From assembly GCF_030384885.1 (NCBI RefSeq), contig NZ_CP128613.1: DNA of 64,000 nt, one strand, 5' to 3'. Positions 60,045 to 61,652 of this stretch are shown in pieces (within the stretch, counting starts at the first letter, position 1; each line of letters starts with the position of its first letter). The stretch comes from Escherichia coli. GTDB taxonomy: Bacteria > Pseudomonadota > Gammaproteobacteria > Enterobacterales > Enterobacteriaceae. The notes beneath the pieces were generated by a model, which saw nothing but the letters and a program-made list of their open reading frames with translations, ran no database searches and had not been told where the DNA came from. Made by a program: the position numbers and the translations under genes.

Positions 60045-61139
60045 GTGTTAGTAAGTCGTCATTTTTGTAATTTTGAGGATTTATTCGTGATCGATTGGCT
60101 TACCGGGATTTTCCCTTGCACACACAAACCGCTTCCGGCGGGGAGTGTTGTCAGCGTTGATGCTGACGGTGCAATTGAGTGGGAAACCGTTAAGCGACTG
60201 ACTGTTCGCGGTTCGCATGAAGCAACGATGAAAGTACGATCGATAGGATCTAATGGCGAAGGTAAAGCGACACATTTGTACATTGATGGTAATCCTTCCA
60301 AGTTTCTGCAGGGGCATTCTGTTGTTGGGTCGGATGATATACAAGGGCTCATGTTGACGGTCTATGCCAGGATTTTATCCTTATTGAATATTCCTCATGA
60401 TTTAGCGGCTTATAAAGCCGTTATGGCAGGTCAGTATAAAATTTCACGTATTGACATTAATTACATGTATTCATTATCTACGCTGGAAAATGTCAGATCA
60501 TGGCTTTATGCCGCCGAATTTAAAGCTAAAACACGCCATGGTCGCGCATGTGGGAAAGGCGGTACAGTTTATTTAGGTAAAAACTCCCGTCGATGGAGTC
60601 TGAAATTTTATTCAAAATATGATGAACACGTTTCTGGTAAAAAAGGGCACCAGATAGCCGAAGAGTTTGTACGAGCCGGGTTACTGGACTGGACGAAAGA
60701 TAAATTACGTATTGAATTAACATTAAGAACAACTGAGCTTATTGATTTAAATTTAACGCTTGGCGCTAACTGGAATATGAAAACACCACGTCAATTATTC
60801 TCTGAATATGTAGGGAGAATAGAAATGAATCAGAATGCTATTTTAAGTGATGAAAAAATAACGAAACTGCCAAGAAAAATACAGTCAACTTATTTACTTT
60901 GGAAACAAGGGGCTAACATGAAAGAAATGTTACCTCATAACACTTTTTATCGCCATAGAAGAGAATTGCTTTCGTTCGGTATCGATATTAATTTCTATTG
61001 TGATTCACCAGACTCTAATAACGTTGTTCCGCTAATAAGAACGCTGGAAGCCAAGCCAGCGGAAATCCCCTTATGGATTTATGAGAAAGGTTTTATTTTC
61101 GATTACAACCGTATTTCGCACGCCAGTAGCTGGCATTAA
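60045..61139 (+). CDS. Filamentous-phage replication initiation protein (gpII-like rolling-circle endonuclease); start uncertain (GTG 60045 or GTG 60087)
   Basis: Recognisable similarity to Ff gpII blocks: KFLQGHSVVG vs KVLQGHNVFG, ISRIDINY vs ISRIDATF, NNVVPLIR vs NNVVPLVR. Confidence 0.85.
   Translation: MLVSRHFCNFEDLFVIDWLTGIFPCTHKPLPAGSVVSVDADGAIEWETVKRLTVRGSHEATMKVRSIGSNGEGKATHLYIDGNPSKFLQGHSVVGSDDIQGLMLTVYARILSLLNIPHDLAAYKAVMAGQYKISRIDINYMYSLSTLENVRSWLYAAEFKAKTRHGRACGKGGTVYLGKNSRRWSLKFYSKYDEHVSGKKGHQIAEEFVRAGLLDWTKDKLRIELTLRTTELIDLNLTLGANWNMKTPRQLFSEYVGRIEMNQNAILSDEKITKLPRKIQSTYLLWKQGANMKEMLPHNTFYRHRRELLSFGIDINFYCDSPDSNNVVPLIRTLEAKPAEIPLWIYEKGFIFDYNRISHASSWH
60825..61139 (+). CDS. Candidate gpX-like protein from in-frame internal start within gII (104 aa)
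   Basis: Internal ATG preceded by GGGAGA RBS at the position where Ff phages initiate gene X. Confidence 0.45.
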   Translation: MNQNAILSDEKITKLPRKIQSTYLLWKQGANMKEMLPHNTFYRHRRELLSFGIDINFYCDSPDSNNVVPLIRTLEAKPAEIPLWIYEKGFIFDYNRISHASSWH

Positions 61140-61150
61140 AGGAAAGTAAT

Positions 61151-61468
61151 ATGTCTAATTATGGTCTTTTCGTTAAGGGTAAAATGTTGGGAGCCCGCCA
61201 ACGTAATAAAGTTAATGGTCAGGGCTATTATAATGAAATTGGTATTGGCCTTGAAATACCTGATGGTTTTGGTGGTACAAAGCAGGATCAAATTATTATT
61301 CGAGTTTCTCAGGCTCTCGTTAACGCAGGTCTAATGAACCAGGCGAATGCTTTCATTGGGAAATTAGTTCAAATTCCTGTCTATGTCCGTGCGTGGTCAA
61401 TGGAGGGTAGGGAAGGTGTAACTTATAATGTTTCTTCCGATGGTGGCATCGCAGAGATCAAAGGTTAA
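61151..61468 (+). CDS. Candidate ssDNA-binding protein (gpV position), 105 aa
   Basis: Small ORF immediately after gII and before the gVII/gIX/gVIII block; sequence itself not confidently recognised. Confidence 0.55.
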   Translation: MSNYGLFVKGKMLGARQRNKVNGQGYYNEIGIGLEIPDGFGGTKQDQIIIRVSQALVNAGLMNQANAFIGKLVQIPVYVRAWSMEGREGVTYNVSSDGGIAEIKG

Positions 61469-61470
61469 AT

Positions 61471-61557
61471 ATGGACGATGTTATTCAAATTTTGATAGCG
61501 TCTGGCATCGTTATTTCTTTTGGCCTCGGCGCGATTACTGCGGGGGTCTTTCGTTAA
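61471..61557 (+). CDS. Minor coat protein gpVII-like (28 aa); absent from the supplied ORF track
   Basis: MDDVIQILIASGIVISFGLGAITAGVFR, small hydrophobic, resembles Ff gpVII C-terminus (..GIIAGGQR); stop overlaps next ATG (TAATG). Confidence 0.5.
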   Translation: MDDVIQILIASGIVISFGLGAITAGVFR

Positions 61558-61652
61558 TGTATATCGTTTATTTCTTCGGGGCTTATACCTTTGGTTTTGC
61601 CCTTTTCTATGCGGTCGGTTCATTTAAATCATTTTCTGACCGATTAATGTAA
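61557..61652 (+). CDS. Minor coat protein gpIX-like (31 aa); absent from the supplied ORF track as a separate gene
   Basis: MYIVYFFGAYTFGFALFYAVGSFKSFSDRLM resembles Ff gpIX (..ITYFTRLME). Confidence 0.5.
   Translation: MYIVYFFGAYTFGFALFYAVGSFKSFSDRLM

Follow-up and report, generated by a model that had tools for sequence, protein, structure and literature searches.

Genes X, VII and IX of a UPphi-type filamentous prophage integrated at dif in Escherichia coli

The last part of the window, i.e. the whole stretch of 64,000 nucleotides of E. coli DNA that was analysed, carries a block of filamentous phage genes. It raises the question of whether three small genes, gX, gVII and gIX, are present in this block as genuine genes, and what kind of phage they belong to. 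The original prediction had placed all three of them there and had stated that they were missed by the ORF track. That they were missed is plausible, since gVII falls below a 60-aa cut-off and gIX shows up only at the end of a longer, spurious ORF of 74 aa (61428-61652).

A filamentous prophage beside hipA

From about position 58114 to its end, the window holds the left portion of a filamentous prophage integrated at dif beside hipA. The left junction (58114..58146, + strand) directly follows hipA and was read as a dif-like hybrid, GGTGCGCATAA-TGTCAACGCG-TTATGTTGAAA, consisting of an exact E. coli dif XerC arm, a spacer of 10 nt rather than 6, and a XerD-like arm. A search allowing up to three mismatches found no full dif in the window, only this hybrid left junction; the related prophage L004 carries a perfect dif at its right end (12829-12856). 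Next to the junction is a variable set of three accessory (cargo) genes (58211..59917), all on the - strand. They encode a 309-aa protein with AbiJ_NTD4 and DUF7014 domains (58211-59140), a 140-aa protein that is hydrophobic by eye and belongs to phrog_4174 with no Pfam match (59224-59646), and a 60-aa protein of phrog_2503 (59735-59917). The prophage of NCTC9104 is annotated with the same trio, and other prophage copies have different cargo in the slot beside dif.

Direct reading and Pfam gave the order gII/gX, gV, gVII, gIX, gVIII, gIII, gVI, gI for the phage genes, all on the + strand. The replication initiator gene gII (60087..61139) starts with GTG and encodes 350 aa; its product matched Pfam Phage_CRI (239 bits), G2P_X_C (102 bits) and TIGR01629 rep_II_X (257.8 bits), and shares 56% identity with pII of I2-2. 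The ssDNA-binding protein encoded by gV (61151..61468, 105 aa) matched PF17426 Putative_G5P with 172.4 bits and is 41% identical to I2-2 pV. For gVIII (61672..61914), encoding the 80-aa precursor of the major coat protein, the Pfam match was Phage_coatGP8 (68 bits), with 54-63% identity to pVIII of I2-2, IKe and PEar1. The attachment protein gene gIII (61961..63211, 416 aa) matched G3P_pilus-bind (89.3 bits) and Phage_Coat_A. A tandem repeat search detected in it an array of 15-nt repeats coding for GGGES (62575-62673), and its length differs among copies (416 versus 430 aa). The start of gVI (63211..63552), encoding a minor coat protein of 113 aa (DUF5455, 36.7 bits), overlaps the gIII stop in TGATG. 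The N-terminal 149 codons of gI, the assembly ATPase gene, run from 63553 to the window end at 64000 (Zot, 140 bits).

When the window was compared with E. coli ECONIH2 (NZ_CP014667.1), positions 59900-64000 were 99.0% identical at the nucleotide level over 100% of the query, and the record was matched at three places. ECONIH2 is the case study of a tandem triple prophage in the work of Shapiro and Putonti, Virus Evol 2020, who described the UPphi group (PMC7307601). In UPphi901 all core genes of IKe and I2-2 are present, with VII, IX and X named (PMC7307601). UPphi phages resemble the window in their dif integration beside hipA, often in tandem, in the gene order II/X-V-VII-IX-VIII-III-VI-I-IV, in the GGGES repeats of gIII and in the reverse-oriented accessory ORFs beside dif. 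No substantive difference was found; the accessory genes beside dif vary among copies, and h1 and h2, the genes by which the group is defined and which follow gIV, lie past the window end. Thus the block very probably comprises the replication and early-morphogenesis genes of a UPphi-group prophage, related to the Lineavirus phages IKe and I2-2, in which the internal start of gX and the genes gVII and gIX are genuine. The original prediction had named the three genes correctly, gX by reference to the Ff phages; the nearest kin are IKe, I2-2 and UPphi, and not Ff or If1.

In its gII/gV module the prophage follows I2-2, not IKe. IKe and I2-2 are non-integrating phages, unlike the prophage found here. 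YpfPhi of Y. pestis and CUS-1 of ExPEC have the same gII/gV replication module and also integrate at dif (PMC7307601), but their structural genes are unrelated to those in the window. In an A4-type prophage, gV is followed by a gene for an 83-aa membrane protein in place of the pair encoding 28 and 31 aa.

Gene X starts within gene II

An ATG preceded by a ribosome binding site had been noted within gII, at position 60825 of the window, and assigned to gX, and this assignment was supported. The ATG (60825-60827) is codon 247 of the 350 codons of gII, counted from the GTG at 60087 to the stop at 61139. It opens an in-frame ORF of 104 aa (60825..61139, + strand) whose product is identical to the C-terminus of pII. 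A Shine-Dalgarno (SD) sequence, GGGAG, lies at 60813..60817 (+ strand) within the gII codons GGG AGA, leaving a spacer of 7 nt. Its duplex with the anti-SD sequence was calculated as -8.9 kcal/mol, the best value for any in-frame ATG, GTG or TTG codon in gII. Since about 1% of random window positions reach this value and gII has eight in-frame ATGs, the strength of the SD is not decisive alone.

Residue 1 of gX aligned with residue 1 of the annotated gX of I2-2 (3829-4125), with 47% identity and a conserved GRIEM motif. The G2P_X_C domain covered gX residues 7-89 (105.6 bits), and phrog_17464 was matched over positions 1-100 of 100 (2.3e-51). The exact 104-aa sequence is present in NCBI as WP_089533191.1. 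In 22 distinct gII sequences, with nucleotide identity down to 79% and 72% of the codons variable, the six codons GGG AGA ATA GAA ATG AAT formed the longest nucleotide-invariant run in the gene. The invariant start was also found in L006, an E. coli prophage of the A4 type with a different structural module. Taken together, these comparisons suggest that gX is a separately started gene, as it is annotated to be in I2-2.

The other way to read these data is that the ATG is merely Met247 of pII, that no separate pX is made, and that the 18 invariant nucleotides reflect another constraint, such as an internal promoter, an operator bound by pV or a junction at which modules recombine. By chance alone, one of the eight in-frame ATGs would have an SD this strong about 8-11% of the time, and in IKe putative internal promoters are annotated just 5' of gene X. 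Against this stand the exact coincidence with the annotated I2-2 start in the conserved GRIEM motif, the beginning of both the G2P_X_C domain and the 100-position PHROG at most 1-7 residues from the gX start, the limits of the invariant run, which spans precisely the SD, the spacer and the ATG, and the general occurrence of gene X in Ff, IKe and I2-2. An explanation by Met247 alone is therefore considered quite improbable. Somewhat less improbable, though still doubtful, is that the 18 nt serve gX as more than a ribosome binding site, e.g. as an operator by which pV or pX would control pX translation. If this were true, the site would be a conserved control point of the replication module, including in prophages with an unrelated structural module.

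As a separate gene product, pX would be translated from the SD-preceded internal ATG in the gII frame and would consist of the last 104 residues of pII. Like its counterpart in the Ff phages, it may restrain pII, so that single-stranded DNA accumulates. Fulford and Model are said to have found in 1984 that pX of f1 is a separate polypeptide needed for ssDNA accumulation. The Ff gene belongs to a different replication module, where gX encodes 111 aa of a 410-aa pII, and the local match between M13 pX and gX extended over just 53 residues with 32% identity.

Genes VII and IX between gene V and gene VIII

The gap between gV and gVIII is filled by two very short ORFs, and direct reading verified the coordinates of the 28-aa and 31-aa ORFs joined by TAATG that had been predicted for this slot. 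Gene gVII (61471..61557, + strand) encodes the 28-aa peptide MDDVIQILIASGIVISFGLGAITAGVFR and starts 2 nt past the gV stop. Gene gIX (61557..61652, + strand) encodes the 31-aa peptide MYIVYFFGAYTFGFALFYAVGSFKSFSDRLM. The two overlap by 1 nt, with the TAA of gVII at 61555-61557 and the ATG of gIX at 61557-61559.

Residues 2-28 of the gVII product aligned with profile positions 8-33 of PF19978 (Inovirus_G7P_2), scoring 43.4 bits (cut-off 27), and phrog_19107 was matched with 5.1e-10. In alignments with IKe, I2-2, PEar1, If1 and M13, the peptide was 68% identical to pVII of both IKe and I2-2, and hhalign gave a probability of 96% for the match to pVII of Ff and If1. Its C-terminal arginine (R28) was invariant in 10 aligned homologues. 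At E <= 1, neither Pfam nor NCBIfam had a model that fitted the gIX product, but this peptide matched phrog_28333 (7.6e-9), showed 55% identity with pIX of IKe and 52% with that of I2-2, and was likewise matched to pIX of Ff and If1 with an hhalign probability of 96%. These results indicate, at the level of sequence, that gVII and gIX encode homologues of inovirus pVII and pIX. The resemblance to the known proteins had been claimed for their C-termini, but in fact it extends over nearly the whole of the IKe and I2-2 peptides.

Strong PDB matches were obtained with profiles that included M13; these were discarded as circular, and the search was repeated without Ff-type members. The gIX profile then had f1 G9P (8b3p) as its sole PDB match, with a marginal E of 0.056, and the gVII profile had no PDB match.

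Like the window, Lineavirus phages IKe and I2-2 and the Erwinia phages PEar1-6 have hydrophobic single-helix peptides in this slot, encoded in a coupled arrangement. The peptides found here are somewhat shorter at the N-terminus (28 aa versus 29-32 for pVII, 31 versus 33 for pIX), and the genes overlap by 1 nt in TAATG, whereas the overlap in the IKe/I2-2/PEar group is 4 nt (ATGA). The Ff phages (f1/M13/fd) share with the window the genome position and the size class of both proteins, the invariant C-terminal Arg of pVII, and acidic and basic residues near the C-terminus of pIX; however, their pIX is only 19% and their pVII 37% identical to the copies described here.

The original prediction would have been contradicted by a lack of conservation of these micro-ORFs in related prophages. 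Instead, both genes were found at the same place in more than 40 loci anchored on gVIII, taken from E. coli, Rosenbergiella, Izhakiella, IMG/VR contigs and cultured phages, and were intact in all except A20. A gIX start that overlaps the gVII stop recurred throughout the related loci. Substitutions were analysed in 11 distinct nucleotide versions of the pair. Variable sites were distributed over the three codon positions as 4/2/26 in gVII and 8/2/24 in gIX, i.e. 26 of 32 (binomial p = 3.5e-8) and 24 of 34 (p = 1e-5) were at third positions. In-frame dN/dS was 0.01-0.05 for gVII (8 computable pairs; 2 pairs had saturated dS) and 0.06-0.30 for gIX, and out of frame it was mostly above 1 for both. 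Low dN/dS and third-position variation were confined to the proposed frames, with a frame switch exactly at the TAATG junction. Such a pattern shows purifying selection on gVII and gIX.

This pattern also bears on the frame of gIX. An ORF finder reported a single ATG-initiated ORF of 74 aa (61428-61652) that overlaps the end of gV and the whole of gVII, and this longer ORF could in principle be the real gIX frame. Over positions 61471-61554, variation follows the gVII frame (4/2/26) and would be almost entirely non-synonymous in the others, including that of the 74-aa ORF. In relatives the upstream extension is broken by stops, e.g. in frame 2 of APEC (KVKYG*CYTNINS), and the homologous pIX proteins are all 31-33 aa long and begin at the coupled ATG. 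The frame-specific substitutions thus refute the 74-aa reading, which was left with hardly any probability, and the 31-aa gIX starting at 61557 is preferred.

The 28-aa and 31-aa products of gVII and gIX are hydrophobic peptides with a single helix, predicted to act as minor coat proteins of the same virion tip. The Ff tip structures (8b3p, 8ixl, 8jww) serve as a mechanistic model. In the cryo-EM structure of the f1 tip, five copies each of pVII and pIX are located at the leading tip (PMC10175506). By homology with f1 and M13, five copies of each protein would form the round tip, which would nucleate assembly on the packaging hairpin and leave the cell first. The residues that match the f1 structure are R28 of pVII, D28 of pIX (aligned with f1 E29) and K24 of pIX (beside f1 R26); in f1 these residues make a salt bridge between pVII and pIX and a positive ring facing the DNA (PMC10175506).

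The SD of gVII is weak (-3.4 kcal/mol duplex), and that of gIX, located inside gVII, is strong (-9.3 kcal/mol). Expression of the pair is probably set by translational coupling, between gV and gVII through the 2-nt gap with almost no SD, and between gVII and gIX through TAATG. Coupling at both junctions is known in f1 and IKe (PMC12548453). For the RNA of positions 61455-61590, a folding energy of -28.1 kcal/mol was predicted, where shuffled sequences averaged -28.5 (z = 0.13). Since the fold is no better than that of shuffled sequences, coupling by hairpin unfolding, the f1 form in which the gIX start is sequestered, is not supported here.

Integrity and annotation of the prophage copy

The block had been described as not being a decayed remnant. 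All phage genes inside the window are intact, and this statement reaches as far as residue 149 of gI; the window contains the N-terminal part of gI, and gIV, h1/h2 and attR lie past its end. In near-identical prophages gIV is followed by two hypothetical genes. Compared with the complete tandem prophage in NCTC9104, the products of gV, gVII, gVIII and gVI and the 149 residues of gI were identical, gII differed at 2 residues, and gIII differed in repeat number.

It could be argued that nothing but the youth of this copy has kept the micro-ORFs intact, that the copy is defective elsewhere and that the small genes say nothing about its viability. The window stops inside gI, and defective copies do exist: IS21 is inserted in gIII of A20, IS1 is present in PEC422, and one UPphi copy has a premature stop in gIII (PMC7307601). 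On the other hand, the visible genes are full length, with gV, gVII, gVIII, gVI and the visible part of gI identical, and gII nearly identical, to those of complete tandem prophages, and UPphi901 has been reported to shed DNase-protected DNA (PMC7307601). The purifying selection acting on gVII and gIX across lineages with dS >1 indicates that the family as a whole was kept functional. A young but defective copy is thus regarded as unlikely. The A20 prophage, the sole copy with a disrupted gVII/gIX pair, is visibly decayed, with gVI and gI annotated at far less than the length they have in intact copies, in addition to the IS21 insertion. This copy shows that the micro-genes do break when the phage dies.

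Between gVIII and gIII, direct reading identified a GC-rich hairpin, GGGGCA-CTCGT-TGCCCC, followed by TTTATTAA (61925..61949, + strand). It occupies the place of the terminator that follows gVIII in IKe, where a stem-loop is annotated at 2031-2050; a consensus terminator scan did not list it.

The biology of the block holds nothing unexpected. The genes gX, gVII and gIX are real but already known, as they have been listed for the UPphi group (PMC7307601) and public databases contain the exact peptides. What is missing is annotation alone: the standard RefSeq pipeline leaves out gIX and gX of this widespread group of prophages, and the micro-genes need checking by hand when the particle-forming ability of such prophages is judged. 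In near-identical prophages RefSeq/PGAP called gVII ('tail virion protein G7P-2') and neither gIX nor gX; for gIX this is probably due to the lack of a matching Pfam or NCBIfam model. In an exact peptide look-up, gIX was found on 24 contigs and gVII on 968, though the two genes always adjoin.

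Gene order and limits of the prophage

Direct reading, the ORF list and Pfam matches showed that the gene order around 60825-61652 is canonical for Ff-like filamentous phages (f1/M13/fd). The phage block starts directly after hipA (56657-58036) and carries gII (60087-61139; GTG start, Pfam Phage_CRI and G2P_X_C), gV (61151-61468; PF17426), the micro-ORFs gVII (61471-61557) and gIX (61557-61652), gVIII (61672-61914), gIII (61961-63211), gVI (63211-63552) and, up to the window end, the first 149 codons of gI (from 63553). Downstream of gVIII, at the position of the IKe terminator, is a GC-rich hairpin that ends in a T-rich tail (61925-61949); it was not among the matches of a consensus terminator scan.

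The sequence GGTGCGCATAATGTCAACGCGTTATGTTGAAA at 58114-58146 matches E. coli dif exactly over the XerC arm and diverges beyond it, and in a related prophage (L004) a perfect dif marks the right end (12829-12856). This dif-like left junction and the perfect dif at the other end of a relative indicate a prophage integrated at dif, of which the window contains the left part. No complete dif was found in a search of the window. The junction reads as a hybrid dif, in which the exact XerC arm (GGTGCGCATAA) is followed by a 10-nt spacer (TGTCAACGCG) in place of the 6-nt central region and by an XerD-like arm (TTATGTTGAAA).

The gIII gene contains a 15-nt tandem array encoding GGGES (62575-62673, 6.6 copies), whose copy number varies among otherwise near-identical prophages (gIII of 416 aa in the window vs 430 aa in E. 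coli NCTC9104), and the same variability was described for the UPphi prophages (PMC7307601). The array also breaks BLAST matches into two pieces.

The small coat protein genes gVII and gIX

The original prediction placed gX, gVII and gIX within this block as small genes missed by the ORF track, and direct reading confirmed the coordinates of all three. The 28-aa ORF (gVII) is MDDVIQILIASGIVISFGLGAITAGVFR and the 31-aa ORF (gIX) is MYIVYFFGAYTFGFALFYAVGSFKSFSDRLM, with the gVII stop and gIX start overlapping as TAATG. A mechanical ORF list hides the two micro-ORFs: gVII falls under a 60-aa cut-off, and gIX is listed merely as the C-terminal part of a 74-aa ORF (61428-61652), which holds gIX in frame and whose N-terminal extension runs through the 3' end of gV and the whole of gVII.

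The pVII product passed the gathering score of Pfam Inovirus_G7P_2 (43.4 bits; gathering score 27) and also matched a minor-coat-protein PHROG. For pIX there was no match in Pfam or NCBIfam, and phrog_28333 was matched at 7.6e-9. Alignment with annotated genes of cultured phages, including the suggested comparison with If1, IKe and M13, revealed homology for both proteins, closest to the Lineavirus phages IKe and I2-2: pVII was 68%, 68%, 44% and 37% identical to its counterparts in IKe, I2-2, If1 and M13, and pIX 55%, 52%, 29% and 19%, respectively. Profile-profile comparison of the UPphi/Lineavirus-type with the Ff/If1-type alignments gave 96% probability for pVII and likewise for pIX. When 177,635 PDB sequences were searched with a gIX profile free of Ff-type sequence, the sole match was f1 G9P (8b3p), with a marginal E of 0.056, and an equivalently built gVII profile found nothing. 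PDB searches with profiles that included M13 were circular and were given no weight.

Conservation in related prophages was examined at loci anchored on gVIII (six from species-representative genomes and 37 from IMG/VR), together with annotated E. coli prophages and cultured phages. Both micro-ORFs occupied the same slot, with a coupled stop/start, at every locus collected except that of E. coli A20; the junction is TAATG in the 28/31-aa type and ATGA in the IKe type. Lack of such conservation had been proposed as grounds for refutation, and A20 was the sole exception. In A20 (L005 6384-6564) gVII is broken by a 1-nt deletion and gIX is intact, gIII carries an IS21-family insertion, and gVI and gI are annotated as much shorter than in intact copies; this copy is decayed, and serves as a natural control for the appearance of lost function.

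The 182-nt gVII-gIX block occurred in 11 distinct nucleotide versions, in which variable sites were distributed over the three codon positions as 4/2/26 in gVII (binomial p = 3.5e-8) and 8/2/24 in gIX (p = 1e-5), and their phase changed at the TAATG junction. Nei-Gojobori dN/dS of each version against the window copy was 0.01–0.05 in frame for gVII (eight of ten pairs; in the other two dS was saturated and no ratio could be computed) and 0.06–0.30 for gIX, and in the other frames it was mostly >1 or substitutions were nearly all non-synonymous. These frame-specific substitutions rule out the 74-aa ORF as the true gIX frame, and its extension is therefore not coding, although it could mislead automatic annotation. 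Overall, the analysis showed that the three genes are present, homologous to those for pVII, pIX and pX, and kept by selection.

In the second tandem copy of the prophage in NCTC9104 (L053 24052-24207) a G5 to G4 change in gVII joins it to the gIX frame, and PGAP annotated the fusion as a 51-aa 'tail virion protein G7P-2'; the first copy in that genome is normal. Since several nearby genes in the assembly are frameshifted, the change may reflect a sequencing error in the homopolymer and not a real mutation.

In the f1 cryo-EM structure, five pVII helices are bundled at the round tip with five pIX helices around them, and the C-termini face the DNA packaging hairpin (PMC10175506). By analogy with f1, pVII and pIX of this prophage would form the same tip of five plus five helices. 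Residues of importance in f1 have counterparts here: R28 of pVII corresponds to f1 Arg33, D28 of pIX to f1 Glu29, and the adjacent K24 of pIX to f1 Arg26. From the gene layout and the work on f1 and IKe reviewed in PMC12548453, the gVII start would depend on ribosomes terminating at gV, which its very weak Shine-Dalgarno (SD) sequence (-3.4 kcal/mol) and its position 2 nt past the gV stop fit. The gIX SD is strong (-9.3 kcal/mol) and lies within gVII, whose stop the gIX start overlaps. The f1 gIX start was proposed to be masked by a hairpin (PMC12548453), of which no counterpart was detectable here.

Gene X within gII

The ATG at 60825 is codon 247 of gII, encodes a product of 104 aa, and follows GGGAG (60813-60817) after a 7-nt spacer. 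Window pX aligned residue 1 on residue 1 with annotated gene X of I2-2 (47% identity), and in each the first residue is the Met within a conserved GRIEM motif. Pfam G2P_X_C starts at pX residue 7, and a 100-position PHROG of stand-alone replication proteins was matched end to end (2.3e-51). Anti-SD pairing at this ATG (-8.9 kcal/mol, a value reached by about 1% of random positions) was the strongest among all in-frame ATG, GTG and TTG codons in gII, whose own start gave -6.0 kcal/mol.

The comparison of gII covered 22 distinct sequences, down to 79% nucleotide identity and with 72% of codons variable, and included one from the A4 prophage, whose structural module is unrelated. The longest nucleotide-invariant codon run (GGG AGA ATA GAA ATG AAT, codons 243-248) coincides exactly with the SD, spacer and start of gX. 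The I2-2 alignment, the SD and this run agree with the prediction of an RBS-preceded gene X start at 60825; the predicted separate translation of pX is well supported by them. In Ff phages pX limits pII and permits ssDNA to accumulate, and pX would by analogy do the same here.

Relatives, annotation and cargo

The original reading of the three genes was correct, but the nearest relatives are UPphi, IKe and I2-2, not Ff or If1. Its view of the block as something other than a decayed remnant held for the visible part, in which every gene is intact and, except for two gII residues and the gIII repeat number, identical to its counterpart in a complete tandem prophage; this view does not extend to the unseen part of the copy.

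The block was matched in 56 of 5,426 complete E. coli genomes. A single place covered at least 80% of the query in 51 of these, the best place was at least 95% identical in 48 records, and the median of two places per matching genome is consistent with tandem copies. The matches included ECONIH2 (99.0%, three places), the strain that Shapiro and Putonti (Virus Evol 2020, PMC7307601) took as their case study of three UPphi prophages in tandem. UPphi901 is dif-integrated, related to IKe and I2-2, has gII/gV in common with YpfPhi, and is shed as DNase-protected DNA (PMC7307601). Public protein collections already contain the exact peptides of gIX ('phage coat protein', 24 contigs), gVII ('tail virion protein G7P-2', 968 contigs) and gX (WP_089533191.1, 53 contigs). 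The prophage group has been described, and so have these genes as one of its features; on near-identical prophages RefSeq calls gVII but neither gIX nor gX, and the sole practical value of the observation is to flag this annotation gap.

Two contigs with structural genes of this phage (99% identity in gVIII) are assigned to an 'uncultured Bacteroides sp.' MAG (CAUHML010000175.1) and a 'Candidatus Nanosynbacter' MAG (JARKOR010000214.1), and a 799-bp IKe/PEar-like fragment (NZ_JTDN01000010.1) under Croceibacterium mercuriale. Such labels most likely reflect binning errors or contamination rather than true hosts.

Copies that share this phage backbone differ in the cargo carried in the slot between the dif-like left junction and gII. 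In the window it encodes proteins of 309, 140 and 60 aa on the minus strand (58211-59917); the first contains AbiJ_NTD4 and DUF7014 (PADLOC candidate PDC-S32, 4.5e-10), and the second appears hydrophobic by eye. The slots compared (L003 6949-7683; A20, L005 2881-3744; the A4 prophage, L006 6077-7828; the related prophage L004 4480-5832) carried a Doc-family toxin, a TIR-domain protein, a zinc-binding ECs_2282 protein or HTH regulators, and in this dif-integrating inovirus the slot appears to be a hot-spot for defence or toxin cargo.

In gI of the near-identical NCTC9104 prophage (L053 17559-18653), an internal Met241 (MRLTKIYFRK...), in a part of the gene that is past the window end, lies directly before the transmembrane segment. 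A fourth overlapped, unannotated gene (gXI) would be expected in this phage too, because Met241 aligns with the f1 gene XI start (MKLTKIYLKK...).
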